Shown: positions 290 through 54,189 of the stretch, one piece after another
Numbering within the stretch: the first letter of the stretch is position 1
How the letters are laid out: each line of letters begins with the position of its first letter
Assembly: GCA_051294905.1 (NCBI GenBank)
Contig: CM119372.1
Location: forward strand, 28,832,001 to 28,896,000
Source: Botryllus schlosseri
Taxonomy: Eukaryota
DNA length: 64,000 bases
Direction of reading: 5' to 3'
Program-made: the position numbers and the translations under genes
Notes under the pieces: generated by a model
The model's input: only the letters and a program-made list of their open reading frames with translations
Databases searched by the model: none
What the model was told of the DNA's origin: nothing

Positions 290-1118
290 CCATCCAACCA
301 ACCATACTAATTAAATAGCTCACAGTGCACGGAAAAGAATTCGTGGCCAGCGGCTCTCGTAACGACACTCACTTACATGCATTCTCGCAAAGCCGTTGAT
401 TATTATAAATATACCAAATACTTGGTTTGTTGATTTATTTTCCCCCTCGGAACGAACGTGGCCATATAACACGTTTTGAGTTGGCCTACACCTCGATTTG
501 TTCTCGTAGACCTGCGATATAGCAATGGCGTCTGACCGTTACATCGGTATAGTGTCTGTTTCTGGTTAAGATTTCACGGTTAGCGGTTAGTAGGCCTTTT
601 CCGTATAGTGCGAGCCTAATTTCTTTTTCACCTAGCTCTCCTGAACTGATCATATACACTTCATGTATTTTGATAAGCACCTGGATTGTGGCGAGAATTG
701 ATGACAGTCTGCAGATCAGAAATTAATCTACAATAGGCTTTCCCTATATGCCTCGCTTTTGTAGCTGTGAAAACTTTGCATTGCTATGTCTCGCTTCTGT
801 AATCCTATACCGGCTCTTTATTGGCAAAGCGAATATCAGAGCACCATGGAGATGACCATAAAACACAAGATAATGATTATCGCTCTTTTAAGCAAGGAAT
901 GGACGGTGGAATTCGCAATTGGACGCCGCAGTCAGTCCAATATCATCGATGACGTCCCAATCATATTTGGCGTTCGCGTCTAGTAGAAACTATTTCATTT
1001 TGCTTCGGCGATTCAAAGCGCACTTGGTGAATGCATTTATGCATATGTGGAGAGCGTGCTCACCACAATATTTATTTTGTTGTATGAAATTGGGTGTCAA
1101 TAAATTTCTGGAAAACTC

Positions 1119-1281
1119 ATACTTACGTGACGAGGCAGTGAACCATGATCAAAAGGCGGTTCTGCCCGGGCGAGGCCTAGCCATTGCACTTCGGCTTGGT
1201 TGACCTCGGCGATTACCCCAAATGTGGGTAACTCGGTCGTGTAAGTTCTGGTAGTGGGGTCTGCGTTCGCGCTAACCCATT
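1119..1281 (+). ncRNA. U1: U1 snRNA variant (C9G 5' arm, 9-nt loop I, Sm AAGTTCTGG)
   Basis: ATACTTACGTG start; rest of U1 architecture retained. Confidence 0.92.
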
Positions 1282-1542
1282 CCATCCAACCATACTAATT
1301 AAATAGCTCACAGTGCATGGAAAAGGATTCGTGGCCAGCGGCTCTCGTAACGACACTCACTTACATGCATTCTCGCAAAGCCGCTGATTATAATAAATAT
1401 ACCAAATACTTGGTTTGTTGATTTATTTTCTGCCTCGGAACGAACGTGGCCATATAACACGTTTTGAGTTGGCCTACACCTCGATTTGTTCTCGTGGACC
1501 TGCGATATAGCAATGGCGTCTGACCTTTACATCGTTATAGTG

Positions 1543-2424
1543 CAGGGGCTGGCAACTTCTCCAGTCGGCGGGCCAGATAGAGGAAAATTAGGTACTTGGC
1601 GGGCCGGATTGCTGAATCGACACATTATTCGCCCATTTATCCACATATACAAGGAATAAATCGTATTTAATAAATGTATTTTAACGACAGCAATGTCGCT
1701 TCAAAGCCATTTCTCCGATAATGGCGAGGACAGTGTGGATTTGAGAATAACATTATCATACAGGCGCCGCCATGTCTGCTTCACTCTGATCAATCAACAC
1801 ACGGTGCAATCCCTAGTTAAGATTTCAAGTCGTTCGATGACCCCGGTAACCCTAATTTAACAAGATATCAATTCATTAGGGTTGAGTAGGTGCCGTGATA
1901 GCGTCGTTGTTCAACTGTGTGGCGTAAATAATCTCGAATATTGAATTCATACGGCCCGCGTTTTCTACAAAATTTGAAAACTGGCCTGCGACCCGTTTTG
2001 AGATGGCGACCCCTGGAATATGCGGTGCCTTACAAAAGCCTAGAAGTGTGGCGTGCTACAAGTCGGCGGTTGCGGAATCGAAAATAAGAAATATATCAGT
2101 CTGGTGTAAATGACCATTGTAGTCGACAAAAATCATGATTACCACAGACGACATTAGGGTTGAGTGCATATCGCAAATGCCGATAATGCAAGTCTTCTCG
2201 CTTCGACGAACTTACGCGTATGCTCCACTCTCGCAACGATGCGCACACACGTATATAATAATATACAGTCACTTAAATTTGACGTAGTATGCAAGTAGTG
2301 GGGGATCTCGACAGACTGGGGCCGCGGGCTACATTATCATGTAAGACGGAAAACCGTCCGCGGGCCGGACAAAATCCCTTCGCGGGCCGGATCCGGCCCG
2401 CGGGCCGTATGTTGCCCACCCCTG
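1543..2424. mobile_element. Non-autonomous hAT (Buster/Charlie-type) MITE, 882-bp form
   Basis: Imperfect TIRs CAGGGGCTGGCAAC / GTTGCCCACCCCTG, subterminal GGCCCGCGGGCC motifs, 8-bp TSD TTATAGTG (1535-1542, 2425-2432) with central TA; empty-site units have a single TTATAGTG. Confidence 0.93.
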
Positions 2425-2996
2425 TTATAGTGTCTGTTTCTGGGTAAGATTTAACGATTAGCGGTTAGTAGGCCTTTTCCGTATAGTGCGAGCCTAATTT
2501 CTTTTTCACCTAGCTCTCCTGAACTGATCATATACACTTCATGTATTTCGATAAGCGCCTGGATTGTGGCGAGAATTGATGACAGTCAGAAGATTAGAAA
2601 TTAATCTACAATAGGCTTTCCCTATATGCCTCGCTTTTGTAGCTGTGAAAACTTTGCATTGCTATGTCACGCTTCTGTAATCCTATACCGGCTCTTTATT
2701 GGCAAAGCGAATATCAGAGCACCATGGAGATGACCATAAACCGCAAGATAATGATTATCGCACTTTTAAGCAAGGAATGGACGGTGGAATTCGCAATTGG
2801 ACGCCGCAGTCAGTCCAATATCATCGATGACGTCCCAATCATATTTGGCGTTCGCGTCTAGTAGAAACTATTTCATTTTGCTTCGGCGATTCAAAGCGCA
2901 CTTGGTGAATGCATTTATGCATATGTGGAGAGCGTGCTCACCACAATATTTACTTTGTTGTATGAAATTGGGTGTCAATAAATTTCTGGAAAACTC

Positions 2997-3159
2997 ATAC
3001 TTACCTGACGAGGCAGTGAACCATGATCAAAAGGCGGTTCTGCCCGGGCGAGGCCTAGCCATTGCACTTCGGCTTGGTTGACCTCGGCGATTACCCCAAA
3101 TGTGGGTAACTCGGTCGTGTAAGTTCTGGTAGTGGGGTCTGCGTTCGCGCTAACCCATT
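2997..3159 (+). ncRNA. U1: U1 snRNA variant (9-nt loop I, Sm AAGTTCTGG)
   Basis: ATACTTACCTG, ATTGCAC, SL IV. Confidence 0.93.
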
Positions 3160-3420
3160 CCATCCAACCATACTAATTAAATAGCTCACAGTGCATGGAA
3201 AAGAATTCGTGGCCAGCGGCTCTCGTAACGACACTCACTTACATGCATTCTCGCAAAGCCGCTGATTATAATAAATATACCAAATACTTGGTTTGTTGAT
3301 TTATTTTCTGCCTCGGAACGAACGTGGCCATATAACACGTTTTGAGTTGGCCTACACCTCGATTTGTTCTCGTGGACCTGCGATATAGCAATGGCGTCTG
3401 ACCTTTACATCGTTATAGTG

Positions 3421-4284
3421 CAGGGGCTGGCAACTTCTCCAGTCGGCGGGCCGGATAAAGGAAAATTAGGTACTTGGTGAGCCGGATTGCTGAATCGACA
3501 CATTATTCGCCCATTTATCCACATATACAAGGAATAAATCGTATTTAATAAATGTATTTTAACGACAGCAATGTCGCTTCAAAGCCATTTCTCCGATAAT
3601 GGCGAGGACAGTGTGGATTTGAGAATAACATTATCATACAGGCGCCGCCATGTCTGCTTCACTCTGATCAATCAACACACGGTGCAATCCCTAGTTAAGA
3701 TTTCAAGTCGTTCGATGACCCCGGTAACCCTAATTTACCAAGATATCAATTCATTAGGGTTGAGTAGGTGCCGTGATAGCGTCGTTGTTCAACTGTGTGG
3801 CGTAAATAATCTCGAATATTGAATTCATACGGCCCGCGTTTTCTACAAAATTTGAAAACTGGCCTGCGACCCGTTTTGAGATGGCGACCCCTGGAATATG
3901 CGGTGCCTTACAAAAGCCTAGAAGTGTGGCGTGCTACAAGTCGGCGGTTGCGGAATCGAAAATAAGAAATATATCAGTCTGGTGTAAATGACCATTGTAG
4001 TCGACAAAAATCATGATTACCACAGACGACATTAGGGTTGAGTGCATATCGCAAATGCCGATAATGCAAGTCTTCTCGCTTCGACGAACTTACGCGTATG
4101 CTCCACTCTCGCAGCGATGCGCACACACGTATATAGTAATATACAGTCACTTAAATTTGACGTAGTATGCAAGTAGTGGGGGATCTCGACAGACTGGGGC
4201 CGCGGGCCACATTATCATGTAAGACGGAAAACCATCCGCGGGCCGGACAAAATCCCTTCGCGGGCCGTATGTTGCCCACCCCTG
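3421..4284. mobile_element. hAT MITE, 864-bp form
   Basis: Same TIRs, TSD and site. Confidence 0.92.
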
Positions 4285-4835
4285 TTATAGTGTCTGTTTC
4301 TGGGTAAGATTTACCGATTAGCGGTTAGTAGGCCTTTTCCGTATAGTGCGAGCCTAATTTCTTTTTCACCTAGCTCTCCTGAACTGATCATATACACTTC
4401 ATGTATTTCGATAAGCGCCTGGATTGTGGCGAGAATTGATGACAGTCAGAAGATTAGAAATTAATCTACAATAGGCTTTCCCTATATGCCTCGCTTTTGT
4501 AGCTGTGAAAACTTTGCATTGCTATGTCACGCTTCTGTAATCCTATACCGGCTCTTTATTGCCAAAGCGAATATCAGAGCACCATGGAGATGACCATAAC
4601 ACGCAAGATAATGATTATCGCACTTTTGAGCAAGGAATGGACGGTGGAGGCGTCCAATATCATCGATGACGTCCCAATCATATTTGGCGTTCGCGTCTAG
4701 TAGAAACTATTTCATTTTGCTTCGGCGATTCAAAGCGCACTTGGTGAATGCATTTATGCATATGTGGTGAGCGTGCTCACCACAATATTTATTTTGTTGT
4801 ATGAAATTGGGTGTCAATAAATTTCTGGAAAACTC

Positions 4836-4999
4836 ATACTTACCTGACGAGGCAGTGAACCATGATCAAAAAGGCGGTTCTGCCCGGGCGAGGCCTAGCC
4901 ATTGCACTTCGGCTTGGTTGACCTCGGCGATTACCCTAAATGTGGGTAACTCGGTCGTGTAATTACTGGTAGTGGGGTCTGCGTTCGCGCTAACCCTTT
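4836..4999 (+). ncRNA. U1: U1 snRNA, Sm-site variant AATTACTGG
   Basis: ATACTTACCTG, ATTGCAC, SL IV. Confidence 0.93.
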
Positions 5000-5828
5000 C
5001 CATCCAACCAACCATACTAATTAAATAGCTCACAGTGCACGGAAAAGAATTCGTGGCCAGCGGCTCTCGTAACGACACTCACTTACATGCATTCTCGCAA
5101 AGCCGTTGATTATTATAAATATACCAAATACTTGGTTTGTTGATTTATTTTCCCCCTCGGAACGAACGTGGCCATATAACACGTTTTGAGTTGGCCTACA
5201 CCTCGATTTGTTCTCGTAGACCTGCGATATAGCAATGGCGTCTGACCGTTACATCGGTATAGTGTCTGTTTCTGGTTAAGATTTCACGGTTAGCGGTTAG
5301 TAGGCCTTTTCCGTATAGTGCGAGCCTAATTTCTTTTTCACCTAGCTCTCCTGAACTGATCATATACACTTCATGTATTTTGATAAGCACCTGGATTGTG
5401 GCGAGAATTGATGACAGTCTGCAGATCAGAAATTAATCTACAATAGGCTTTCCCTATATGCCTCGCTTTTGTAGCTGTGAAAACTTTGCATTGCTATGTC
5501 TCGCTTCTGTAATCCTATACCGGCTCTTTATTGGCAAAGCGAATATCAGAGCACCATGGAGATGACCATAAAACACAAGATAATGATTATCGCTCTTTTA
5601 AGCAAGGAATGGACGGTGGAATTCGCAATTGGACGCCGCAGTCAGTCCAATATCATCGATGACGTCCCAATCATATTTGGCGTTCGCGTCTAGTAGAAAC
5701 TATTTCATTTTGCTTCGGCGATTCAAAGCGCACTTGGTGAATGCATTTATGCATATGTGGAGAGCGTGCTCACCACAATATTTATTTTGTTGTATGAAAT
5801 TGGGTGTCAATAAATTTCTGGAAAACTC

Positions 5829-5991
5829 ATACTTACGTGACGAGGCAGTGAACCATGATCAAAAGGCGGTTCTGCCCGGGCGAGGCCTAGCCATTGCACT
5901 TCGGCTTGGTTGACCTCGGCGATTACCCCAAATGTGGGTAACTCGGTCGTGTAAGTTCTGGTAGTGGGGTCTGCGTTCGCGCTAACCCATT
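5829..5991 (+). ncRNA. U1: U1 snRNA variant (C9G, 9-nt loop I, Sm AAGTTCTGG)
   Basis: ATACTTACGTG start; U1 body. Confidence 0.92.
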
Positions 5992-6252
5992 CCATCCAAC
6001 CATACTAATTAAATAGCTCACAGTGCATGGAAAAGGATTCGTGGCCAGCGGCTCTCGTAACGACACTCACTTACATGCATTCTCGCAAAGCCGCTGATTA
6101 TAATAAATATACCAAATACTTGGTTTGTTGATTTATTTTCTGCCTCGGAACGAACGTGGCCATATAACACGTTTTGAGTTGGCCTACACCTCGATTTGTT
6201 CTCGTGGACCTGCGATATAGCAATGGCGTCTGACCTTTACATCGTTATAGTG

Positions 6253-7134
6253 CAGGGGCTGGCAACTTCTCCAGTCGGCGGGCCAGATAGAGGAAAATTA
6301 GGTACTTGGCGGGCCGGATTGCTGAATCGACACATTATTCGCCCATTTATCCACATATACAAGGAATAAATCGTATTTAATAAATGTATTTTAACGACAG
6401 CAATGTCGCTTCAAAGCCATTTCTCCGATAATGGCGAGGACAGTGTGGATTTGAGAATAACATTATCATACAGGCGCCGCCATGTCTGCTTCACTCTGAT
6501 CAATCAACACACGGTGCAATCCCTAGTTAAGATTTCAAGTCGTTCGATGACCCCGGTAACCCTAATTTAACAAGATATCAATTCATTAGGGTTGAGTAGG
6601 TGCCGTGATAGCGTCGTTGTTCAACTGTGTGGCGTAAATAATCTCGAATATTGAATTCATACGGCCCGCGTTTTCTACAAAATTTGAAAACTGGCCTGCG
6701 ACCCGTTTTGAGATGGCGACCCCTGGAATATGCGGTGCCTTACAAAAGCCTAGAAGTGTGGCGTGCTACAAGTCGGCGGTTGCGGAATCGAAAATAAGAA
6801 ATATATCAGTCTGGTGTAAATGACCATTGTAGTCGACAAAAATCATGATTACCACAGACGACATTAGGGTTGAGTGCATATCGCAAATGCCGATAATGCA
6901 AGTCTTCTCGCTTCGACGAACTTACGCGTATGCTCCACTCTCGCAACGATGCGCACACACGTATATAATAATATACAGTCACTTAAATTTGACGTAGTAT
7001 GCAAGTAGTGGGGGATCTCGACAGACTGGGGCCGCGGGCTACATTATCATGTAAGACGGAAAACCGTCCGCGGGCCGGACAAAATCCCTTCGCGGGCCGG
7101 ATCCGGCCCGCGGGCCGTATGTTGCCCACCCCTG
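6253..7134. mobile_element. hAT MITE, 882-bp form
   Basis: Same TIRs, TSD and site. Confidence 0.92.
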
Positions 7135-7706
7135 TTATAGTGTCTGTTTCTGGGTAAGATTTAACGATTAGCGGTTAGTAGGCCTTTTCCGTATAGTGCG
7201 AGCCTAATTTCTTTTTCACCTAGCTCTCCTGAACTGATCATATACACTTCATGTATTTCGATAAGCGCCTGGATTGTGGCGAGAATTGATGACAGTCAGA
7301 AGATTAGAAATTAATCTACAATAGGCTTTCCCTATATGCCTCGCTTTTGTAGCTGTGAAAACTTTGCATTGCTATGTCACGCTTCTGTAATCCTATACCG
7401 GCTCTTTATTGGCAAAGCGAATATCAGAGCACCATGGAGATGACCATAAACCGCAAGATAATGATTATCGCACTTTTAAGCAAGGAATGGACGGTGGAAT
7501 TCGCAATTGGACGCCGCAGTCAGTCCAATATCATCGATGACGTCCCAATCATATTTGGCGTTCGCGTCTAGTAGAAACTATTTCATTTTGCTTCGGCGAT
7601 TCAAAGCGCACTTGGTGAATGCATTTATGCATATGTGGAGAGCGTGCTCACCACAATATTTACTTTGTTGTATGAAATTGGGTGTCAATAAATTTCTGGA
7701 AAACTC

Positions 7707-7869
7707 ATACTTACCTGACGAGGCAGTGAACCATGATCAAAAGGCGGTTCTGCCCGGGCGAGGCCTAGCCATTGCACTTCGGCTTGGTTGACCTCGGCGA
7801 TTACCCCAAATGTGGGTAACTCGGTCGTGTAAGTTCTGGTAGTGGGGTCTGCGTTCGCGCTAACCCATT
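7707..7869 (+). ncRNA. U1: U1 snRNA variant (9-nt loop I, Sm AAGTTCTGG)
   Basis: ATACTTACCTG, ATTGCAC, SL IV. Confidence 0.93.
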
Positions 7870-8130
7870 CCATCCAACCATACTAATTAAATAGCTCACA
7901 GTGCATGGAAAAGAATTCGTGGCCAGCGGCTCTCGTAACGACACTCACTTACATGCATTCTCGCAAAGCCGCTGATTATAATAAATATACCAAATACTTG
8001 GTTTGTTGATTTATTTTCTGCCTCGGAACGAACGTGGCCATATAACACGTTTTGAGTTGGCCTACACCTCGATTTGTTCTCGTGGACCTGCGATATAGCA
8101 ATGGCGTCTGACCTTTACATCGTTATAGTG

Positions 8131-8994
8131 CAGGGGCTGGCAACTTCTCCAGTCGGCGGGCCGGATAAAGGAAAATTAGGTACTTGGTGAGCCGGATTGC
8201 TGAATCGACACATTATTCGCCCATTTATCCACATATACAAGGAATAAATCGTATTTAATAAATGTATTTTAACGACAGCAATGTCGCTTCAAAGCCATTT
8301 CTCCGATAATGGCGAGGACAGTGTGGATTTGAGAATAACATTATCATACAGGCGCCGCCATGTCTGCTTCACTCTGATCAATCAACACACGGTGCAATCC
8401 CTAGTTAAGATTTCAAGTCGTTCGATGACCCCGGTAACCCTAATTTACCAAGATATCAATTCATTAGGGTTGAGTAGGTGCCGTGATAGCGTCGTTGTTC
8501 AACTGTGTGGCGTAAATAATCTCGAATATTGAATTCATACGGCCCGCGTTTTCTACAAAATTTGAAAACTGGCCTGCGACCCGTTTTGAGATGGCGACCC
8601 CTGGAATATGCGGTGCCTTACAAAAGCCTAGAAGTGTGGCGTGCTACAAGTCGGCGGTTGCGGAATCGAAAATAAGAAATATATCAGTCTGGTGTAAATG
8701 ACCATTGTAGTCGACAAAAATCATGATTACCACAGACGACATTAGGGTTGAGTGCATATCGCAAATGCCGATAATGCAAGTCTTCTCGCTTCGACGAACT
8801 TACGCGTATGCTCCACTCTCGCAGCGATGCGCACACACGTATATAGTAATATACAGTCACTTAAATTTGACGTAGTATGCAAGTAGTGGGGGATCTCGAC
8901 AGACTGGGGCCGCGGGCCACATTATCATGTAAGACGGAAAACCATCCGCGGGCCGGACAAAATCCCTTCGCGGGCCGTATGTTGCCCACCCCTG
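8131..8994. mobile_element. hAT MITE, 864-bp form
   Basis: Same TIRs, TSD and site. Confidence 0.92.
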
Positions 8995-9545
8995 TTATAG
9001 TGTCTGTTTCTGGGTAAGATTTACCGATTAGCGGTTAGTAGGCCTTTTCCGTATAGTGCGAGCCTAATTTCTTTTTCACCTAGCTCTCCTGAACTGATCA
9101 TATACACTTCATGTATTTCGATAAGCGCCTGGATTGTGGCGAGAATTGATGACAGTCAGAAGATTAGAAATTAATCTACAATAGGCTTTCCCTATATGCC
9201 TCGCTTTTGTAGCTGTGAAAACTTTGCATTGCTATGTCACGCTTCTGTAATCCTATACCGGCTCTTTATTGCCAAAGCGAATATCAGAGCACCATGGAGA
9301 TGACCATAACACGCAAGATAATGATTATCGCACTTTTGAGCAAGGAATGGACGGTGGAGGCGTCCAATATCATCGATGACGTCCCAATCATATTTGGCGT
9401 TCGCGTCTAGTAGAAACTATTTCATTTTGCTTCGGCGATTCAAAGCGCACTTGGTGAATGCATTTATGCATATGTGGTGAGCGTGCTCACCACAATATTT
9501 ATTTTGTTGTATGAAATTGGGTGTCAATAAATTTCTGGAAAACTC

Positions 9546-9709
9546 ATACTTACCTGACGAGGCAGTGAACCATGATCAAAAAGGCGGTTCTGCCCGGGCG
9601 AGGCCTAGCCATTGCACTTCGGCTTGGTTGACCTCGGCGATTACCCTAAATGTGGGTAACTCGGTCGTGTAATTACTGGTAGTGGGGTCTGCGTTCGCGC
9701 TAACCCTTT
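9546..9709 (+). ncRNA. U1: U1 snRNA, Sm-site variant AATTACTGG
   Basis: ATACTTACCTG, ATTGCAC, SL IV. Confidence 0.93.
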
Positions 9710-10538
9710 CCATCCAACCAACCATACTAATTAAATAGCTCACAGTGCACGGAAAAGAATTCGTGGCCAGCGGCTCTCGTAACGACACTCACTTACATGC
9801 ATTCTCGCAAAGCCGTTGATTATTATAAATATACCAAATACTTGGTTTGTTGATTTATTTTCCCCCTCGGAACGAACGTGGCCATATAACACGTTTTGAG
9901 TTGGCCTACACCTCGATTTGTTCTCGTAGACCTGCGATATAGCAATGGCGTCTGACCGTTACATCGGTATAGTGTCTGTTTCTGGTTAAGATTTCACGGT
10001 TAGCGGTTAGTAGGCCTTTTCCGTATAGTGCGAGCCTAATTTCTTTTTCACCTAGCTCTCCTGAACTGATCATATACACTTCATGTATTTTGATAAGCAC
10101 CTGGATTGTGGCGAGAATTGATGACAGTCTGCAGATCAGAAATTAATCTACAATAGGCTTTCCCTATATGCCTCGCTTTTGTAGCTGTGAAAACTTTGCA
10201 TTGCTATGTCTCGCTTCTGTAATCCTATACCGGCTCTTTATTGGCAAAGCGAATATCAGAGCACCATGGAGATGACCATAAAACACAAGATAATGATTAT
10301 CGCTCTTTTAAGCAAGGAATGGACGGTGGAATTCGCAATTGGACGCCGCAGTCAGTCCAATATCATCGATGACGTCCCAATCATATTTGGCGTTCGCGTC
10401 TAGTAGAAACTATTTCATTTTGCTTCGGCGATTCAAAGCGCACTTGGTGAATGCATTTATGCATATGTGGAGAGCGTGCTCACCACAATATTTATTTTGT
10501 TGTATGAAATTGGGTGTCAATAAATTTCTGGAAAACTC

Positions 10539-10701
10539 ATACTTACGTGACGAGGCAGTGAACCATGATCAAAAGGCGGTTCTGCCCGGGCGAGGCCTAG
10601 CCATTGCACTTCGGCTTGGTTGACCTCGGCGATTACCCCAAATGTGGGTAACTCGGTCGTGTAAGTTCTGGTAGTGGGGTCTGCGTTCGCGCTAACCCAT
10701 T
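10539..10701 (+). ncRNA. U1: U1 snRNA variant (C9G, 9-nt loop I, Sm AAGTTCTGG)
   Basis: ATACTTACGTG start; U1 body. Confidence 0.92.
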
Positions 10702-10962
10702 CCATCCAACCATACTAATTAAATAGCTCACAGTGCATGGAAAAGGATTCGTGGCCAGCGGCTCTCGTAACGACACTCACTTACATGCATTCTCGCAAAG
10801 CCGCTGATTATAATAAATATACCAAATACTTGGTTTGTTGATTTATTTTCTGCCTCGGAACGAACGTGGCCATATAACACGTTTTGAGTTGGCCTACACC
10901 TCGATTTGTTCTCGTGGACCTGCGATATAGCAATGGCGTCTGACCTTTACATCGTTATAGTG

Positions 10963-11844
10963 CAGGGGCTGGCAACTTCTCCAGTCGGCGGGCCAGATAG
11001 AGGAAAATTAGGTACTTGGCGGGCCGGATTGCTGAATCGACACATTATTCCCCCATTTATCCACATATACAAGGAATAAATCGTATTTAATAAATGTATT
11101 TTAACGACAGCAATGTCGCTTCAAAGCCATTTCTCCGATAATGGCGAGGACAGTGTGGATTTGAGAATAACATTATCATACAGGCGCCGCCATGTCTGCT
11201 TCACTCTGATCAATCAACACACGGTGCAATCCCTAGTTAAGATTTCAAGTCGTTCGATGACCCCGGTAACCCTAATTTAACAAGATATCAATTCATTAGG
11301 GTTGAGTAGGTGCCGTGATAGCGTCGTTGTTCAACTGTGTGGCGTAAATAATCTCGAATATTGAATTCATACGGCCCGCGTTTTCTACAAAATTTGAAAA
11401 CTGGCCTGCGACCCGTTTTGAGATGGCGACCCCTGGAATATGCGGTGCCTTACAAAAGCCTAGAAGTGTGGCGTGCTACAAGTCGGCGGTTGCGGAATCG
11501 AAAATAAGAAATATATCAGTCTGGTGTAAATGACCATTGTAGTCGACAAAAATCATGATTACCACAGACGACATTAGGGTTGAGTGCATATCGCAAATGC
11601 CGATAATGCAAGTCTTCTCGCTTCGACGAACTTACGCGTATGCTCCACTCTCGCAACGATGCGCACACACGTATATAATAATATACAGTCACTTAAATTT
11701 GACGTAGTATGCAAGTAGTGGGGGATCTCGACAGACTGTGGCCGCGGGCCACATTATCATGTAAGACGGAAAACCGTCCGCGGGCCGGACAAAATCCCTT
11801 CGCGGGCCGGATCCGGCCCGCGGGCCGTATGTTGCCCACCCCTG
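10963..11844. mobile_element. hAT MITE, 882-bp form
   Basis: Same TIRs, TSD and site. Confidence 0.92.
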
Positions 11845-12416
11845 TTATAGTGTCTGTTTCTGGGTAAGATTTAACGATTAGCGGTTAGTAGGCCTTTTCC
11901 GTATAGTGCGAGCCTAATTTCTTTTTCACCTAGCTCTCCTGAACTGATCATATACACTTCATGTATTTCGATAAGCGCCTGGATTGTGGCGAGAATTGAT
12001 GACAGTCAGAAGATTAGAAATTAATCTACAATAGGCTTTCCCTATATGCCTCGCTTTTGTAGCTGTGAAAACTTTGCATTGCTATGTCACGCTTCTGTAA
12101 TCCTATACCGGCTCTTTATTGGCAAAGCGAATATCAGAGCACCATGGAGATGACCATAAACCGCAAGATAATGATTATCGCACTTTTAAGCAAGGAATGG
12201 ACGGTGGAATTCGCAATTGGACGCCGCAGTCAGTCCAATATCATCGATGACGTCCCAATCATATTTGGCGTTCGCGTCTAGTAGAAACTATTTCATTTTG
12301 CTTCGGCGATTCAAAGCGCACTTGGTGAATGCATTTATGCATATGTGGAGAGCGTGCTCACCACAATATTTACTTTGTTGTATGAAATTGGGTGTCAATA
12401 AATTTCTGGAAAACTC

Positions 12417-12579
12417 ATACTTACCTGACGAGGCAGTGAACCATGATCAAAAGGCGGTTCTGCCCGGGCGAGGCCTAGCCATTGCACTTCGGCTTGGTTG
12501 ACCTCGGCGATTACCCCAAATGTGGGTAACTCGGTCGTGTAAGTTCTGGTAGTGGGGTCTGCGTTCGCGCTAACCCATT
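12417..12579 (+). ncRNA. U1: U1 snRNA variant (9-nt loop I, Sm AAGTTCTGG)
   Basis: ATACTTACCTG, ATTGCAC, SL IV. Confidence 0.93.
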
Positions 12580-12840
12580 CCATCCAACCATACTAATTAA
12601 ATAGCTCACAGTGCATGGAAAAGAATTCGTGGCCAGCGGCTCTCGTAACGACACTCACTTACATGCATTCTCGCAAAGCCGCTGATTATAATAAATATAC
12701 CAAATACTTGGTTTGTTGATTTATTTTCTGCCTCGGAACGAACGTGGCCATATAACACGTTTTGAGTTGGCCTACACCTCGATTTGTTCTCGTGGACCTG
12801 CGATATAGCAATGGCGTCTGACCTTTACATCGTTATAGTG

Positions 12841-13704
12841 CAGGGGCTGGCAACTTCTCCAGTCGGCGGGCCGGATAAAGGAAAATTAGGTACTTGGTGA
12901 GCCGGATTGCTGAATCGACACATTATTCGCCCATTTATCCACATATACAAGGAATAAATCGTATTTAATAAATGTATTTTAACGACAGCAATGTCGCTTC
13001 AAAGCCATTTCTCCGATAATGGCGAGGACAGTGTGGATTTGAGAATAACATTATCATACAGGCGCCGCCATGTCTGCTTCACTCTGATCAATCAACACAC
13101 GGTGCAATCCCTAGTTAAGATTTCAAGTCGTTCGATGACCCCGGTAACCCTAATTTACCAAGATATCAATTCATTAGGGTTGAGTAGGTGCCGTGATAGC
13201 GTCGTTGTTCAACTGTGTGGCGTAAATAATCTCGAATATTGAATTCATACGGCCCGCGTTTTCTACAAAATTTGAAAACTGGCCTGCGACCCGTTTTGAG
13301 ATGGCGACCCCTGGAATATGCGGTGCCTTACAAAAGCCTAGAAGTGTGGCGTGCTACAAGTCGGCGGTTGCGGAATCGAAAATAAGAAATATATCAGTCT
13401 GGTGTAAATGACCATTGTAGTCGACAAAAATCATGATTACCACAGACGACATTAGGGTTGAGTGCATATCGCAAATGCCGATAATGCAAGTCTTCTCGCT
13501 TCGACGAACTTACGCGTATGCTCCACTCTCGCAGCGATGCGCACACACGTATATAGTAATATACAGTCACTTAAATTTGACGTAGTATGCAAGTAGTGGG
13601 GGATCTCGACAGACTGGGGCCGCGGGCCACATTATCATGTAAGACGGAAAACCATCCGCGGGCCGGACAAAATCCCTTCGCGGGCCGTATGTTGCCCACC
13701 CCTG
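12841..13704. mobile_element. hAT MITE, 864-bp form
   Basis: Same TIRs, TSD and site. Confidence 0.92.
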
Positions 13705-14276
13705 TTATAGTGTCTGTTTCTGGGTAAGATTTAACGATTAGCGGTTAGTAGGCCTTTTCCGTATAGTGCGAGTCTAATTTCTTTTTCACCTAGCTCTCCT
13801 GAACTGATCATATACACTTCATGTATTTCGATAAGCGCCTGGATTGTGGCGAGAATTGATGACAGTCGGCAGATCAGAAATTAATCTACAATAGGCTTTC
13901 CCTATATGCCTCGCTTTTGTAGCTGTGAAAACTTTGCATTGCTATGTCACGCTTCTGTAATCCTATACCGGCTCTTTATTAGCAAAGCGAATATCAGAGC
14001 ACCATGGAGTTGACCATAAAACGCAAGATAATGATTATCGCACTTTTAAGCAAGGAATGGACGGTGGAATTCGCAATTGGACGCCGCAGTCAGTCCAATA
14101 TCATCGATGACGTCCCAATCATACTTGGCGTTCGCGTCTAGTAGAAACTATTTCATTTTGCTTCGGCGATTCAAAGCGCACTTGGTGAATGCATTTATGC
14201 ATATGTGGAGAGCGTGCTCACCACAATATTTATTTTGTTGTATGAAATTGGGTGTCAATAAATTTCTGGAAAACTC

Positions 14277-14440
14277 ATACTTACCTGACGAGGCAGTGAA
14301 CCATGATCAAAAAGGCGGTTCTGCCCGGGCGAGGCCTAGCCATTGCACTTCGGCTTGGTTGACTTCGGCGATTACCCCAAATGTGGGTAACTCGGTCGTG
14401 TGATTTCTGGTAGTGGGGTCTGCGTTCGCGCTAACCCTTT
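14277..14440 (+). ncRNA. U1: U1 snRNA (Sm GATTTCTGG)
   Basis: ATACTTACCTG, GATCAAAAAG, ATTGCAC, SL IV. Confidence 0.94.
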
Positions 14441-15265
14441 CCATCCAACCATTCTGATTAAATAGCTCACAGTGCATGAAAAAGAATTCGTGGCCAGCGG
14501 CTCTCGTAACGACACTCACTTACATGCATTTTCGCAAAGCCGCTGATTATTATAAAAATACCAAATACTTGGTTTGTTGATTTATTTTCCCCCTCGGAAC
14601 GAACGTGGCCATATAACACGTTTTGAGTTGGCCTACACCTCGATTTGTTCTCGTAGACCTGCGATATAGCAATGGCGTCTGACCTTTACATCGTTATAGT
14701 GTCTGTTTCTGGGTAAGATTTCACAATTAGCGGTTAGTAGGCCTTTTCCGTATAGTGCGAGCCTAATTTCTTTTTCACCTAGCTCTCCTGAACTGATAAT
14801 ATACACTTCATGTATTTCGATAAGCGCCTGGATTGTAGCGAGAATTGATGACAGTCGGCAGATCAGAAATTAATCTACAATAGGCTTTCCCTATATGCCT
14901 CGCTTTTGTAGCTGTGAAAACTTTGCATTGCTATGTCACGCTTCTGTAATCCTATACCGGCTCTTTATTGGCAAAGCGAATATCAGAGCACCATGGAGAT
15001 GACCATAAACCGCAAGATAATAATTATCGCACTTTTAAGCAAGGAATGGACGGTGGAATTCGCAATTGGACGCCGCAGTCAGTCCAATATCATCGATGAC
15101 GTCCCAATCATATTTGGCGTTCGCGTCTAGTAGAAACTATTTCATTTTGCTTCGGCGATTCAAAGCGCACTTGGTGAATGCATTTATGCATATGTGGAGA
15201 GCGTGCTCACCACAATATTTATTTTGTTGTATGAAATTGGGTGTCAATAAATTTCTGGAAAACTC

Positions 15266-15429
15266 ATACTTACCTGACGAGGCAGTGAACCATGATCAAA
15301 AAGGCGGTTCTGCCCGGGCGAGGCCTAGCCATTGCACTTCGGCTTGGTTGACCTCGGCGATTACCCCAAATGTGGGTAACTCGGTCGTGTAATTTCTGGT
15401 AGTGGGGTCTGCGTTCGCGCTAACCCTTT
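15266..15429 (+). ncRNA. U1: U1 snRNA, array-consensus type (Sm AATTTCTGG)
   Basis: All U1 motifs intact. Confidence 0.97.
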
Positions 15430-16258
15430 CCATCCAACCAACCATACTAATTAAATAGCTCACAGTGCACGGAAAAGAATTTGTGGCCAGCGGCTCTCGT
15501 AACGACACTCACTTACATGCATTCTCGCAAAGCCGCTGATTATTATAAATATACCAAATACTTGGTTTGTTGATTTATTTTCCCCCTCGGAACGAACGTG
15601 GCCATATAACACGTTTTGAGTTGGCCTACACCTCGATTTGTTCTCGTAGACCTGCGATATAGCAATGGCGTCTGACCGTTACATCGGTATAGTGTCTGTT
15701 TCTGGTTAAGATTTCACGGTTAGCGGTTAGTAGGCCTTTTCCGTATAGTGCGAGCCTAATTTCTTTTTCACCTAGCTCTCCTGAACTGATCATATACACT
15801 TCATGTATTTCGATAAGCGCCTGGATTGTGGCGAGAATTGATGACAGTCGGCAGATCAGAAATTAATCTACAATAGGCTTTCCCTATATGCCTCGCTTTT
15901 GTAGCTGTGAAAACTTTGCATTGCTATGTCTCGCTTCTGTAATCCTATACCGGCTCTTTATTGGCAAAGCGAATATCAGAGCACCATGGAGATGACCATA
16001 AAACACAAGATAATGATTATCGCTCTTTTAAGCAAGGAATGGACGGTGGAATTCGCAATTGGACGCCGCAGTCAGTCCAATATCATCGATGACGTCCCAA
16101 TCATATTTGGCGTTCGCGTCTAGTAGAAACTATTTCATTTTGCTTCGGCGATTCAAAGCGCACTTGGTGAATGCATTTATGCATATGTGGAGAGCGTGCT
16201 CACCACAATATTTATTTTGTTGTATGAAATTGGGTGTCAATAAATTTCTGGAAAACTC

Positions 16259-16421
16259 ATACTTACGTGACGAGGCAGTGAACCATGATCAAAAGGCGGT
16301 TCTGCCCGGGCGAGGCCTAGCCATTGCACTTCGGCTTGGTTGACCTCGGCGATTACCCCAAATGTGGGTAACTCGGTCGTGTAAGTTCTGGTAGTGGGGT
16401 CTGCGTTCGCGCTAACCCAAG
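16259..16421 (+). ncRNA. U1: U1 snRNA variant (C9G, 9-nt loop I, Sm AAGTTCTGG, altered 3' end)
   Basis: ATACTTACGTG start; ends TAACCCAAG. Confidence 0.92.
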
Positions 16422-16682
16422 CCATCCAACCATACTAATTAAATAGCTCACAGTGCATGGAAAAGGATTCGTGGCCAGCGGCTCTCGTAACGACACTCAC
16501 TTACATGCATTCTCGCAAAGCCGCTGATTATAATAAATATACCAAATACTTGGTTTGTTGATTTATGTTCTGCCTCGGAACGAACGTGGCCATATAACAC
16601 GTTTTGAGTTGGCCTACACCTCGATTTGTTCTCGTGGACCTGCGATATAGCAATGGCGTCTGACCTTTACATCGTTATAGTG

Positions 16683-17564
16683 CAGGGGCTGGCAACTTCT
16701 CCAGTCGGCGGGCCAGATAGAGGAAAATTAGGTACTTGGCGGGCCGGATTGCTGAATCGACACATTATTCGCCCATTTATCCACATATACAAGGAATAAA
16801 TCGTATTTAATAAATGTATTTTAACGACAGCAATGTCGCTTCAAAGCCATTTCTCCGATAATGGCGAGGACAGTGTGGATTTGAGAATAACATTATCATA
16901 CAGGCGCCGCCATGTCTGCTTCACTCTGATCAATCAACACACGGTGCAATCCCTAGTTAAGATTTCAAGTCGTTCGATGACCCCGGTAACCCTAATTTAA
17001 CAAGATATCAATTCATTAGGGTTGAGTAGGTGCCGTGATAGCGTCGTTGTTCAACTGTGTGGCGTAAATAATCTCGAATATTGAATTCATACGGCCCGCG
17101 TTTTCTACAAAATTTGAAAACTGGCCTGCGACCCGTTTTGAGATGGCGACCCCTGGAATATGCGGTGCCTTACAAAAGCCTAGAAGTGTGGCGTGCTATA
17201 AGTCGGCGGTTGCGGAATCGAAAATAAGAAATATATCAGTCTGGTGTAAATGACCATTGTAGTCGACAAAAATCATGATTACCACAGACGACATTAGGGT
17301 TGAGTGCATATCGCAAATGCCGATAATGCAAGTCTTCTCGCTTCGACGAACTTACGCGTATGCTCCACTCTCGCAACGATGCGCACACACGTATATAGTA
17401 ATATACAGTCACTTAAATTTGACGTAGTATGCAAGTAGTGGGGGATCTCGACAGACTGGGGCCGCGGGCCACATTATCATGTAAGACGGAAAACCGTCCG
17501 CGGGCCGGACAAAATCCCTTCGCGGGCCGGATCCGGCCCGCGGGCCGTATGTTGCCCACCCCTG
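16683..17564. mobile_element. hAT MITE, 882-bp form
   Basis: Same TIRs, TSD and site. Confidence 0.92.
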
Positions 17565-18136
17565 TTATAGTGTCTGTTTCTGGGTAAGATTTAACGATTA
17601 GCGGTTAGTAGGCCTTTTCCGTATAGTGCGAGCCTAATTTCTTTTTCACCTAGCTCTCCTGAACTGATCATATACACTTCATGTATTTCGATAAGCGCCT
17701 GGATTGTGGCGAGAATTGATGACAGTCGGCAGATCAGAAATTAATCTACAATAGGCTTTCCCTATATGCCTCGCTTTTGTAGCTGTGAAAACTTTGCATT
17801 GCTATGTCACGCTTCTGTAATCCTATACCGGCTCTTTATTAGCAAAGCGAATATCAGAGCACCATGGAGTTGACCATAAAACGCAAGATAATGATTATCG
17901 CACTTTTAAGCAAGGAATGGACGGTGGAATTCGCAATTGGACGCCGCAGTCAGTCCAATATCATCGATGACGTCCCAATCATACTTGGCGTTCGCGTCTA
18001 GTAGAAACTATTTCATTTTGCTTCGGCGATTCAAAGCGCACTTGGTGAATGCATTTATGCATATGTGGAGAGCGTGCTCACCACAATATTTATTTTGTTG
18101 TATGAAATTGGGTGTCAATAAATTTCTGGAAAACTC

Positions 18137-18300
18137 ATACTTACCTGACGAGGCAGTGAACCATGATCAAAAAGGCGGTTCTGCCCGGGCGAGGCCTAGC
18201 CATTGCACTTCGGCTTGGTTGACTTCAGCGATTACCCCAAATGTGGGTAACTCGGTCGTGTGATTTCTGGTAGTGGGGTCTGCGTTCGCGCTAACCCTTT
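18137..18300 (+). ncRNA. U1: U1 snRNA (Sm GATTTCTGG; GACTTCAGCG)
   Basis: ATACTTACCTG, ATTGCAC, SL IV. Confidence 0.93.
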
Positions 18301-18561
18301 CCATCCAACCATTCTGATTAAATAGCTCACAGTGCATGGAAAAGAATTCGTGGCCAGCGGCTCTCGTAACGACACTCACTTACATGCATTCTCGCAAAGC
18401 CGCTGATTATAATAAATATACCAAATACTTGGTTTGTTGATTTATTTTCCCCCTCGGAACGAACGTGGCCATATAACACGTTTTGAGTTGGCCTACACCT
18501 CGATTTGTTCTCGTGGACCTGCGATATAGCAATGGCGTCTGACCTTTACATCGTTATAGTG

Positions 18562-19425
18562 CAGGGGCTGGCAACTTCTCCAGTCGGCGGGCCGGATAGA
18601 GGAAAATTAGGTACTTGGCGGGCCGGATTGCTGAATCGACACATTATTCGCCCATTTATCCACATATACAAGGAATAAATCGTATTTAATAAATGTACTT
18701 TAACGACAGCAATGTCGCTTCAAAGCCATTTCTCCGATAATGGCGAGGACAGTGTGGATTTGAGAATAACATTATCATACAGGCGCCGCCATGTCTGCTT
18801 CACTCTGATCAATCAACACACGGTGCAATCCCTAGTTAAGATTTCAAGTCGTTCGATGACCCCGGTAACCCTAATTTACCAAGATATCAATTCATTAGGG
18901 TTGAGTAAGTGCCGTGATAGCGTCGTTGTTCAACTGTGCGGCGTAAATAATCTCGAATATTGAATTCATACGGCCAGCGTTTTCTACAAAATTTGAAAAC
19001 TGGCCTGCGACCCGTTTTGAGATGGCGACCCCTGGAATATGCGGTGCCTTACAAAAGCCTAGAAGTGTGGCGTGCTACAAGTCGGCGGTTGCGGAATCGA
19101 AAATAAGAAATATATCAGTCTGGTGTAAATGACCATTGTAGTCGACAAAAATCATGATTACCACAGACGACATTAGGGTTGAGTGCATATCGCAGATGCC
19201 GATAATGCAAGTCTTCTCGCTTCGACGAACTTACGCGTATGCTCCACTCTCGCAACAATGCGCACACACGTATATAGTAATATACAGTCACTTAAATTTG
19301 ACGTAGTATGCAAGTAGTGGGGGATCTCGACAGACTGGGGCCGCGGGCCACATTATCATGTAAGACGGAAAACCATCCGCGGGCCGGACAAAATCCCTTC
19401 GCGGGCCGTATGTTGCCCACCCCTG
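18562..19425. mobile_element. hAT MITE, 864-bp form
   Basis: Same TIRs, TSD and site. Confidence 0.92.
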
Positions 19426-19997
19426 TTATAGTGTCTGTTTCTGGGTAAGATTTACCGATTAGCGGTTAGTAGGCCTTTTCCGTATAGTGCGAGCCTAATT
19501 TCTTTTTCACCTAGCTCTCCTGAACTGATCATATACACTTCATGTATTTCGATAAGCGCCTGGATTGTGGCGAGAATTGATGACAGTCAGAAGATTAGAA
19601 ATTAATCTACAATAGGCTTTCCCTATATGCCTCGCTTTTGTAGCTGTGAAAACTTTGCATTGCTATGTCACGCTTCTGTAATCCTATACCGGCTCTTTAT
19701 TGGCAAAGCGAATATCAGAGCACCATGGAGATGACCATAAACCGCAAGATAATGATTATCGCACTTTTAAGCAAGGAATGGACGGTGGAATTCGCAATTG
19801 GACGCCGCAGTCAGTCCAATATCATCGATGACGTCCCAATCATATTTGGCGTTCGCGTCTAGTAGAAACTATTTCATTTTGCTTCGGCGATTCAAAGCGC
19901 ACTTGGTGAATGCATTTATGCATATGTGGAGAGCGTGCTCACCACAATATTTACTTTGTTGTATGAAATTGGGTGTCAATAAATTTCTGGAAAACTC

Positions 19998-20160
19998 ATA
20001 CTTACCTGACGAGGCAGTGAACCATGATCAAAAGGCGGTTCTGCCCGGGCGAGGCCTAGCCATTGCACTTCGGCTTGGTTGACCTCGGCGATTACCCCAA
20101 ATGTGGGTAACTCGGTCGTGTAAGTTCTGGTAGTGGGGTCTGCGTTCGCGCTAACCCATT
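19998..20160 (+). ncRNA. U1: U1 snRNA variant (9-nt loop I, Sm AAGTTCTGG)
   Basis: ATACTTACCTG, ATTGCAC, SL IV. Confidence 0.93.
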
Positions 20161-20421
20161 CCATCCAACCATACTAATTAAATAGCTCACAGTGCATGGA
20201 AAAGAATTCGTGGCCAGCGGCTCTCGTAACGACACTCACTTACATGCATTCTCGCAAAGCCGCTGATTATAATAAATATACCAAATACTTGGTTTGTTGA
20301 TTTATTTTCTGCCTCGGAACGAACGTGGCCATATAACACGTTTTGAGTTGGCCTACACCTCGATTTGTTCTCGTGGACCTGCGATATAGCAATGGCGTCT
20401 GACCTTTACATCGTTATAGTG

Positions 20422-21285
20422 CAGGGGCTGGCAACTTCTCCAGTCGGCGGGCCGGATAGAGGAAAATTAGGTACTTGGTGAGCCGGATTGCTGAATCGAC
20501 ACATTATTCGCCCATTTATCCACATATACAAGGAATAAATCGTATTTCATAAATGTATTTTAACGACAGCAATGTCGCTTCAAAGCCATTTCTCCGATAA
20601 TGGCGAGGACAGTGTGGATTTGAGAATAACATTATCATACAGGCGCCGCCATGTCTGCTTCACTCTGATCAATCAACACACGGTGCAATCCCTAGTTAAG
20701 ATTTCAAGTCGTTCGATGACCCCGGTAACCCTAATTTACCAAGATATCAATTCATTAGGGTTGAGTAGGTGCCGTGATAGCGTCGTTGTTCAACTGTGTG
20801 GCGTAAATAATCTCGAATATTGAATTCATACGGCCCGCGTTTTCTACAAAATTTGAAAACTGGCCTGCGACCCGTTTTGAGATGGCGACCCCTGGAATAT
20901 GCGGTGCCTTACAAAAGCCTAGAAGTGTGGCGTGCTACAAGTCGGCGGTTGCGGAATCGAAAATAAGAAATATATCAGTCTGTTGTAAATGACCATTGTA
21001 GTCGACAAAAATCATGATTACCACAGACGACATTAGGGTTGAGTGCATATCGCAAATGCCGATAATGCAAGTCTTCTCGCTTCGACGAACTTACGCGTAT
21101 GCTCCACTCTCGCAACGATGCGCACACACGTATATAGTAATATACAGTCACTTAAATTTGACGTAGTATGCAAGTAGTGGGGGATCTCGACAGACTGGGG
21201 CCGCGGGCCACATTATCATGTAAGACGGAAAACCATCCGCGGGCCGGACAAAATCCCTTCGCGGGCCGTATGTTGCCCACCCCTG
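20422..21285. mobile_element. hAT MITE, 864-bp form
   Basis: Same TIRs, TSD and site. Confidence 0.92.
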
Positions 21286-21857
21286 TTATAGTGTCTGTTT
21301 CTGGGTAAGATTTAACGATTAGCGGTTAGTAGGCCTTTTCCGTATAGTGCGAGCCTAATTTCTTTTTCACCTAGCTCTCCTGAACTGATCATATACACTT
21401 CATGTATTTCGATAAGCGCCTGGATTGTGGCGAGAATTGATGACAGTCGGCAGATCAGAAATTAATCTACAATAGGCTTTCCCTATATGCCTCGCTTTTG
21501 TAGCTGTGAAAACTTTGCATTGCTATGTCACGCTTCTGTAATCCTATACCGGCTCTTTATTAGCAAAGCGAATATCAGAGCACCATGGAGTTGACCATAA
21601 AACGCAAGATAATGATTATCGCACTTTTAAGCAAGGAATGGACGGTGGAATTCGCAATTGGACGCCGCAGTCAGTCCAATATCATCGATGACGTCCCAAT
21701 CATACTTGGCGTTCGCGTCTAGTAGAAACTATTTCATTTTGCTTCGGCGATTCAAAGCGCACTTGGTGAATGCATTTATGCATATGTGGAGAGCGTGCTC
21801 ACCACAATATTTATTTTGTTGTATGAAATTGGGTGTCAATAAATTTCTGGAAAACTC

Positions 21858-22036
21858 ATACTTACCTGACGAGGCAGTGAACCATAATCAAAAAGGCGGT
21901 TCTGCCCGGGCGAGGCCTAGCCATTGCACTTCGGCTTGGTTGACTTCGGCTTGGTTGACCTCGGCGATTACCCCAAATGTGGGTAACTCGGTCGTGTGAT
22001 TTCTGGTAGTGGGGTCTGCGTTCGCGCTAACCCTTT
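21858..22036 (+). ncRNA. U1: U1 snRNA variant or pseudogene with 15-bp internal tandem duplication and loop I G>A
   Basis: ACTTCGGCTTGGTTG twice (21928-21957); loop I AATCAAAAAG; Sm GATTTCTGG. Confidence 0.88.
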
Positions 22037-22865
22037 CCATCCAACCAACCATACTAATTAAATAGCTCACAGTGCACGGAAAAGAATTTGTGGCCAGCGG
22101 CTCTCGTAACGACACTCACTTACATGCATTCTCGCAAAGCCGCTGATTATTATAAATATACCAAATACTTGGTTTGTTGATTTATTTTCCCCCTCGGAAC
22201 GAACGTGGCCATATAACACGTTTTGAGTTGGCCTACACCTCGATTTGTTCTCGTAGACCTGCGATATAGCAATGGCGTCTGACCTTTACATCGTTATAGT
22301 GTCTGTTTCTGGGTAAGATTTCACGATTAGCGGTTAGTAGGCCTTTTCCGTATAGTGCGAGCCTAATTTCTTTTTCACCTAGCTCTCCTGAACTGATAAT
22401 ATACACTTCATGTATTTCGATAAGCGCCTGGATTGTAGCGAGAATTGATGACAGTCGGCAGATCAGAAATTAATCTACAATAGGCTTTCCCTATATGCCT
22501 CGCTTTTGTAGCTGTGAAAACTTTGCATTGCTATGTCACGCTTCTGTAATCCTATACCGGCTCTTTATTGGCAAAGCGAATATCAGAGCACCATGGAGAT
22601 GACCATAAACCGCAAGATAATAATTATCGCACTTTTAAGCAAGGAATGGACGGTGGAATTCGCAATTGGACGCCGCAGTCAGTCCAATATCATCGATGAC
22701 GTCCCAATCATATTTGGCGTTCGCGTCTAGTAGAAACTATTTCATTTTGCTTCGGCGATTCAAAGCGCACTTGGTGAATGCATTTATGCATATGTGGAGA
22801 GCGTGCTCACCACAATATTTACTTTGTTGTATGAAATTGGGTGTCAATAAATTTCTGGAAAACTC

Positions 22866-23028
22866 ATACTTACCTGACGAGGCAGTGAACCATGATCAAA
22901 AGGCGGTTCTGCCCGGGCGAGGCCTAGCCATTGCACTTCGGCTTGGTTGACCTCGGCGATTACCCCAAATGTGGGTAACTCGGTCGTGTAAGTTCTGGTA
23001 GTGGGGTCTGCGTTCGCGCTAACCCATT
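22866..23028 (+). ncRNA. U1: U1 snRNA variant (9-nt loop I, Sm AAGTTCTGG)
   Basis: ATACTTACCTG, ATTGCAC, SL IV. Confidence 0.93.
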
Positions 23029-23289
23029 CCATCCAACCATACTAATTAAATAGCTCACAGTGCATGGAAAAGAATTCGTGGCCAGCGGCTCTCGTAACGA
23101 CACTCACTTACATGCATTCTCGCAAAGCCGCTGATTATAATAAATATACCAAATACTTGGTTTGTTGATTTATTTTCCCCCTCGGAACGAACGTGGCCAT
23201 ATAACACGTTTTGAGTTGGCCTACACCTCGATTTGTTCTCGTGGACCTGCGATATAGCAATGGCGTCTGACCTTTACATCGTTATAGTG

Positions 23290-54083: not shown

Positions 54084-54189
54084 ACCTATACAATGAATAA
54101 ATCGTGTTGAAGCATAGGGGCCATAAACAGTATTTATTGAATTTTTCTAACCTAAATGTGCTCCAATAGTTGTTGAAGTCAATCAGACG

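Follow-up and report, generated by a model that had tools for sequence, protein, structure and literature searches.

Background

Can a natural U1 small nuclear RNA (snRNA) with an altered 5' splice-site recognition arm serve a donor class of its own, or is such a gene a passenger among its normal neighbours? The question is raised by a stretch of 64,000 nucleotides (nt) of the Botryllus schlosseri genome (GenBank assembly GCA_051294905.1, contig CM119372.1, positions 28,832,001 to 28,896,000 of the forward strand), hereafter called the window, whose first letter is position 1 in all coordinates below, and which is filled from 126 to 64000 by a tandem array of 39 U1 snRNA copies on the + strand. 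Four of these copies carry G in place of C at nt 9 of the arm (G9 instead of C9), and in the original prediction, made by inspection of the letters, they were regarded as a natural U1 of shifted specificity, comparable to engineered suppressor U1s. The G9 copies are real and likely go back to one origin, and on balance it appears probable that they are inert variant U1 passengers of the array whose RNA is predicted to occlude its own recognition arm.

The four G9 copies

A search of the window with ATACTTACNTG returned 39 matches, on the + strand only (chance mean 3.8; maximum of 100 shuffles 9), while Rfam reports 38 complete U1 genes, + strand throughout, the 39th copy at 63910 being cut off by the window end. 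Among the 39 U1 5' ends nt 9 is C in 35 and G in 4, and the latter are exactly the copies predicted, at 1119, 5829, 10539 and 16259, which begin with ATACTTACGTG. The numbering of the altered base as nt 9 is right, and its placement opposite the last exon base (position -1) agrees with the account of human U1 (PMC12380619). All four are full-length U1 genes, scoring 126.3-126.5 bits with RF00003 over model positions 1-166 (gathering score 69.5), and their loop II (AUUGCAC) and 3' UUCG hairpin are unchanged. They depart from U1 in three places: the canonical arm ACUUACCUG is broken by G at nt 9; loop I, which in a typical U1 offers 10 nt to U1-70K, has 9 nt and reads GAUCAAAAG; and the Sm site, instead of the single-stranded consensus A-U-U-U-N-U-G, has AGUUCUG and is predicted to be partly paired with the arm. 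The complete Sm site of all four copies, AAGUUCUGG, is also that of 7 C9 copies, which likewise have the short loop I. The features on which the argument rests are the following.

1119..1281, + strand: U1 gene, G9 copy 1; G at 1127; RF00003 126.3 bits; starts with ATACTTACGTG
5829..5991, + strand: U1 gene, G9 copy 2; G at 5837; 4710 bp past copy 1, with an identical 1878-bp unit
10539..10701, + strand: U1 gene, G9 copy 3; G at 10547; its unit differs from that of copy 1 at 3/1878 sites
16259..16421, + strand: U1 gene, G9 copy 4; G at 16267; not part of the 4710-bp period; 14/1878 sites differ from copy 1
1119..1129, + strand: 5' splice-site recognition arm with C9G, read from the sequence
1147..1155, + strand: loop I of 9 nt, GATCAAAAG, the U1-70K binding site; one A fewer than the majority 10-nt loop (role: PMC4383343)
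1243..1251, + strand: Sm site AAGTTCTGG; G at 1245 in place of the first U (equivalent to human U127)
1236..1246, + strand: GTCGTGTAAGT, the strand that according to ViennaRNA (for naked RNA) would form the self-helix with nt 3-13 (1121-1131)
1241-1246, + strand: donor mimic GTAAGT inside the partner strand; G9 lies opposite U at 1240
1049..1118, + strand: proximal promoter, identical to the majority type (20/39 copies)
791..1326, + strand: three flank alleles private to the G9 copies (791, 884 and 1326 in copy 1); found in 4/37 aligned copies
2997..29606, + strand: seven C9 copies with the same Sm-G short-loop haplotype, at 2997, 7707, 12417, 19998, 22866, 27584 and 29444

The 70 nt upstream of the G9 copies are of the majority type, and a TCACC element at 1060-1079 is presumably a version of the proximal sequence element. 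A promoter lesion is thereby ruled out for these copies; the promoter is predicted to be active and, since the upstream sequence is of the majority type, transcription of the G9 copies is likely.

Origin of the G9 allele

The suspicion that all four copies descend from one mutation is borne out by the flanks. In an alignment of 37 copies with their flanking sequences (copy 126, which has no upstream sequence, and the cut copy 63910 were omitted), three alleles are exclusive to the four G9 copies, on which ground we rejected four independent mutations. In the tree of the copies, which was rooted at the midpoint and in which gene conversion is evident, they form a single clade (support 100/98) nested within an 11-copy group with G in the Sm site (98/96). 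Three of the four belong to a higher-order repeat of 4710 bp found at the array's left end, the first two units of which differ at 1/4710 sites, and the fourth lies outside this period. The simplest reading of these relationships is that the Sm change and the loop deletion came first and that G9 arose once on that background. A random base-calling error is unlikely, because in each of four copies, whose surroundings differ, G9 is accompanied by the three private flank alleles.

Sequencing runs add little to this. The DNA run X1, which may be the source sample, is represented by 662 contigs whose table has no row at 1127; the table likewise lacks 1326, where the reference letter is not that of 33/37 copies, and the T that is common at 1279, and because a position known to vary is missing too, the blank at 1127 is uninformative on G9. 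Three RNA runs (X23, X21 and X22, of each of which 3-6% was read) gave 4, 12 and 14 reads, 30 in total, of which only one spans nt 9, and that one extends into the upstream flank. At 1245, X22 has the normal U and not the G of the haplotype in 5/5 reads, a very small number from a different sample. All four reads of X23 (4/4, 1279-1292) show a U1 3' end and flank that match no complete copy in the window; their C at 1279 is also found in 7 X1 contigs, and further U1 types probably exist outside the window. Over the spacer upstream of the U1 start (900-1100) a small number of reads from the single-cell runs X21 and X22 are found, nearly all in one orientation, which may be read-through from the preceding copy, or DNA, the counts being too low to say.

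Donors available to a free G9 arm

Had the G9 arm been free, it could indeed be expected to change partners. We calculated duplex energies for the first 11 nt of U1 against CAN/GUAAGU (the stroke marks the exon-intron boundary). The C9 arm strongly prefers G at -1 (-11.8 kcal/mol, compared with -5.3 for A, -5.4 for C and -5.2 for U), while for the G9 arm the values are -7.8 with G, -5.7 with A, -11.0 with C and -9.2 with U. The proposed complementarity to CAC/GTAAGT thus holds (-11.0 kcal/mol for G9 against -5.4 for C9), and an unpaired G9 arm would favour -1C donors and, through wobble, -1U donors. In otherwise intact human U1 a change of nt 9 is reported to shift the preference at -1, and the g.9C>T change found in human leukaemia altered 505 introns with a shift at this position, an effect confirmed in cell lines (PMC12380619); compensatory U1s rescue mutations at the last exon base (PMC10572768). 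These precedents make retargeting by a G9 arm biologically plausible. Of the natural suppressor-type U1 originally envisaged, however, only a part stands: the arm is complementary to another donor class, but the body is not otherwise intact and is probably impaired in assembly, given the loop I deletion, the Sm change and the predicted self-helix.

Changes of this kind appear to be uncommon elsewhere. Among U1 loci from metagenome contigs (131 loci; 7/64 parts of the collection were scanned with a pattern that required GATCA and ATTGCAC and hence favours intact genes) nt 9 is C in 121/121 distinct genes, from which it follows that a change of nt 9 is rare in intact U1 genes. G in place of the first U of the Sm site occurs in 0/83 other U1 genes, the pattern being free at that letter. 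A scan of the metagenome contigs for the U1 start of the array species gave 0 matches, and the generic U1 scan found no close relative and no G9 relative, the best score being 228 of 328. In the literature searched, which was partially covered, we found no report of a natural C9G U1, although a human variant with G9 is possible in figures or supplements.

Predicted pairing of the arm with the Sm region

The Sm change has a consequence missed by the original prediction: it converts GUGUAAUUUC to GUGUAAGUUC and so writes the consensus donor GUAAGU into U1 itself. In the fold predicted with ViennaRNA, nt 3-13 pair with nt 118-128. The seven C9 copies of the parent type have one C-U mismatch in this helix, which G9 turns into a G-U pair (G9-U122), giving an unbroken helix of 11 bp. 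Calculated across the 20 distinct U1 bodies, the probability that nt 3-8 pair with the Sm region at 37 C reaches 0.97 in G9 copies and 0.93-0.94 in those of the parent haplotype, compared with 0.00-0.12 in the remaining 27 copies. When loop I is blocked and the 3' end extended by 25 nt, cross-pairing is 0.97 in both G9 and parent copies and at most 0.44 in the other 27, and at 20 C the arm-Sm pairing is much as at 37 C.

The energy needed to open the arm follows the same order: 6.8-7.0 kcal/mol in G9 copies, 5.5-5.7 in the parent type and 1.2-4.6 in the other 27 copies, to be compared with a median of 1.5 and a maximum of 4.8 kcal/mol in outside U1 genes (105/121, 16 being dropped as short or without an Sm match). 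Opening the 7-nt Sm core costs 4.7 in a G9 copy and 1.6-2.1 in three intact copies. G9 was also considered as the chief cause of the lock and rejected in this role: introduced alone, it gives a cross-pairing of 0.57 and does not raise the opening cost, while the Sm change alone gives 0.93.

What is new here is the Sm change that creates an internal GUAAGU donor, with G9 predicted to complete the lock; in the literature searched (partial coverage) we found no report of a U1 arm that pairs with a donor sequence arisen in the Sm site of the same RNA. The comparison with suppressor U1s is weakened by this, because the arm that was supposed to read other donors is predicted to be locked onto the GUAAGU of its own RNA.

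Assembly and fate of the G9 RNA

It had been cautioned from the outset that the short loop I and the altered Sm site might block assembly of the small nuclear ribonucleoprotein (snRNP). The changed haplotype is confirmed, and the block itself is probable: with its arm predicted to be locked onto the Sm region, the G9 RNA is likely to acquire Sm proteins inefficiently and to influence splicing hardly at all. In human U1, tighter helices around the Sm site prevented accumulation in Cajal bodies (PMC10584915). Most loop I bases contact U1-70K (PMC4383343), which is in turn the bridge from U1 to the SMN complex (PMC12390936), and the deletion in loop I is therefore a likely second block. Among human variant U1s, 13/15 failed a splicing assay despite a matched arm (PMC10870369).

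The following course of events would account for the data. On a haplotype that already had the Sm change and the shortened loop I, one C-to-G mutation would have produced G9. The G9 copies would be transcribed like their neighbours, nt 3-13 of the RNA would pair with nt 118-128, and G9-U122 would close the single mismatch of the parent haplotype. The tightened helix, together with the short loop I, would lower SMN-dependent Sm loading, and most of the G9 RNA would be degraded. Unequal crossing-over would have spread the allele to four copies, three of them via triplication of the 4710-bp repeat, in an array presumably big enough to carry dead copies. The class that we suggest for the G9 genes is a variant U1, or U1 pseudogene, of a multicopy family, in which they are a minority (4/39) beside normal copies.

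Several observations weigh against an inert, self-occluded RNA. Most of the lock is due to the Sm change, to which G9 contributes 1.3-1.5 kcal/mol, and G9 ranks only 5th of the 45 possible changes of nt 1-15. If the Sm core is kept open, 3.8 kcal/mol is enough to free the G9 arm, compared with 3.0-3.8 in three intact copies, so that a particle once assembled could read donors. The folding, moreover, applies to naked RNA and misses the native fold even of the consensus copy, and its energies are rough. The proximal promoter of the G9 copies is intact. Finally, the human variant vU1.15, in which this Sm position is also altered (U127C), does bind Sm proteins, yet is reported to have supported no splicing, and several splicing-inactive human variants still reach the nucleus (PMC10870369).

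Variation across the array

The G9 copies belong to an array with repeat units of either ~0.94-1.0 kb or 1.84-1.88 kb, in which changes of the assembly elements are widespread. The Sm site or loop I is changed in 28/38 complete copies (126-62190), the majority loop I and a normal Sm site are both kept in 10/38, and 5/38 match the consensus U1 body throughout. Across the 38 complete copies there are five Sm-site alleles (AAGUUC, UAUUUC, GAUUUC, AAUUAC and AAUUCC), and there are 20 distinct U1 bodies.

Purifying selection on these copies is undetectable, since body and flank vary at similar rates: there are 23 substitution alleles in the 164 nt of the U1 body and 63 in 616 nt of flank (P=0.21), or 0.110 and 0.102 alleles per nt, respectively, if the Sm site and loop I are excluded from the body. 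One change in the 11 nt of the arm is as expected from the local rate. We also considered whether the intact-looking copies are more conserved and rejected it, as the 10 intact copies carry 5/16 of the other body alleles (counted by eye), about their share. The Sm site itself has 4 alleles in 9 nt among 37 copies, or 5 with copy 126, where about 1 is expected (Poisson P=0.019 and 0.0035, respectively), a density ~4x the local one, and together with loop I there are 7-8 alleles in 19 nt (P=0.006-0.0015). This test was devised after the data had been seen, and 4 alleles occur in 2.6% of the 9-nt windows and 5 in one window of the flank; besides, the fifth Sm allele is a singleton, the sole difference between two of the 4710-bp repeats, and may be an error. 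We regard the excess of Sm-site alleles as a lead only.

Other features of the array are given here for completeness. Its majority loop I is GAUCAAAAAG (15294-15303 and the equivalent place in most copies), which lacks the G of the Rfam consensus at loop position 7 and is found exactly in only 1/121 outside U1 genes; judging by this loop, the array may represent a divergent U1 class. A haplotype of six copies (36870, 38729, 40587, 46264, 58181 and 61056) combines loop I GAACGAAAG and a stem I change with a normal Sm site and arm, and these, if transcribed, would be the likeliest copies here to load Sm without U1-70K binding. The copy at 21858-22036 has a 15-nt tandem duplication in stem-loop II, in addition to a changed loop I and Sm site. 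What distinguishes the long repeat units from the short ones is an element of ~880 bp (1543-2424), whose ends are inverted (CAGGGG...CCCCTG) and whose target duplication, TTATAGTG, measures 8 bp, and which we take to be similar to non-autonomous DNA transposons of the hAT type and to have been amplified along with the array. The array is broken for ~5 kb at 50650-55600. Here lie a fragment of a U1 3' part that has diverged (near 52325-52360), a spacer copy of greater age and, at 52900-53765, a nested element whose ends are inverted and whose 8-bp duplication is almost perfect; no open reading frame longer than 160 amino acids was found in this interruption.

Alternative explanations

It is rather unlikely, though this account survives best among the alternatives, that the G9 copies are leaky passengers, in which a minority of the RNA gains an Sm ring and slightly lifts the use of cryptic -1C and -1U donors, as tolerated noise with no selected role. 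Such leakage would be consistent with the intact promoter, with an arm that, when the Sm core is open, is roughly as accessible as that of intact copies, with the Sm binding of the human U127C variant (PMC10870369) and with the 505 introns altered by g.9C>T in tumours (PMC12380619). It is opposed by the two additional lesions and the predicted lock, and G9 is present in just 4/39 copies of the window.

We consider it improbable that the G9 RNA is a working U1 of shifted specificity, which assembles, perhaps after a helicase has opened the self-helix, and serves -1C or -1U donors. The duplex energies do favour such donors, the invariance of C9 in outside genes indicates that the change is rare, and natural co-changes of U1 arm and donor are on record in Entamoeba (bioRxiv 10.1101/2022.06.08.495308). 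Against this, the allele has a single origin and owes its copies mostly to one recent triplication, its haplotype has an altered Sm site and loop I, the U1 body shows no purifying selection relative to the flanks, and no G9 relative was found in the metagenome contigs scanned. Equally doubtful is a gated second U1, whose arm would be shut on the donor mimic at its own Sm site, would be opened and assembled only under high unwinding activity, and would then promote the use of -1C and -1U donors, for which normal U1 is a weak reader.

Still a little less probable is selected silencing, by which an overgrown array would have favoured changes that stop assembly (in the Sm site and loop I, with G9 as an extra lock) in order to cut U1 dosage or spare the SMN complex. 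Faulty U1 can sequester SMN (PMC12390936), the excess of Sm-site and loop I alleles is borne by 28/38 copies, and few changes in the arm other than G9 would make the lock tighter; however, the excess was tested after the fact and is matched by other 9-nt windows, one Sm allele is possibly an error, and G9, as one event, cannot show selection. Least credible of all is that G9 or its copy number stems from sequencing or assembly error, for although one of the first two 4710-bp repeats, which are 1 site apart, may be an over-expansion, and G9 was not seen in independent reads (uninformative at 1127), the allele goes together with three private ones, 3 sites separate copy 3 and 14 sites copy 4 from copy 1, and an error is not expected to recur in such a linked pattern.

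Implications and comparison with known systems

If the G9 copies are inert, as we favour, they show how a U1 arm change of the kind that alters splicing in tumours can persist, riding on a copy predicted to shut itself through pairing of the arm with the donor sequence that arose in the Sm site. If they are active, an animal would have a natural U1, encoded by a minority of its U1 copies, that serves a donor class of its own, as has long been suggested for variant U1s but rarely demonstrated. That so many copies are changed in assembly elements is a separate lead, on how dosage is handled in snRNA arrays.

Among the systems known to us from the literature, the G9 RNA would be expected to behave most like the human variant U1s. 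The human vU1/RNVU1 genes and U1 pseudogenes are, like the G9 copies, extra U1 genes changed in the arm, loop I or the Sm site (PMC8457000, PMC10870369, PMC3561869); nearly two-thirds of the expressed human variants are altered in the arm or in loops I/II, and most cannot support splicing (PMC8457000, PMC10870369). Unlike them, the G9 copies are at least 97% like their neighbours and have the majority promoter, in a tandem array with units of 1-2 kb, and the Sm change of their haplotype makes an internal donor, the predicted partner of the arm. The somatic g.9C>T mutation of chronic lymphocytic leukaemia affects the same nucleotide, also in a minority of copies, and shifts the preference at -1 (PMC12380619). 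That change, however, is C>T and favours -1A, and the accessible text of the report mentions no second lesion (PMC12380619), whereas the change described here is C>G, would favour -1C and -1U, comes from a genome assembly and is accompanied by two further lesions.

Engineered suppressor U1s share with G9 a change in the arm, by which they can pair again with a donor whose last exon base is mutated; they have an intact body and are overexpressed (PMC10572768), whereas any activity of G9 is hypothetical. The stNSS (strengthened near-Sm-site stem) mutants of pre-snRNAs resemble the predicted G9 fold in that a helix covering the Sm site or next to it is tightened, which in their case blocks snRNP maturation; these, however, are designed mutants, and the human U1 structure needs a 3' extension (PMC10584915), while here the change is natural and the predicted partner is the RNA's own 5' arm. 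Finally, the U1 of Entamoeba and Mastigamoeba is, like G9, a natural U1 with an altered recognition arm, but there it is the sole U1 candidate and fits the genome-wide donor (bioRxiv 10.1101/2022.06.08.495308), whereas in Botryllus the altered arm is found in 4/39 copies beside normal U1.

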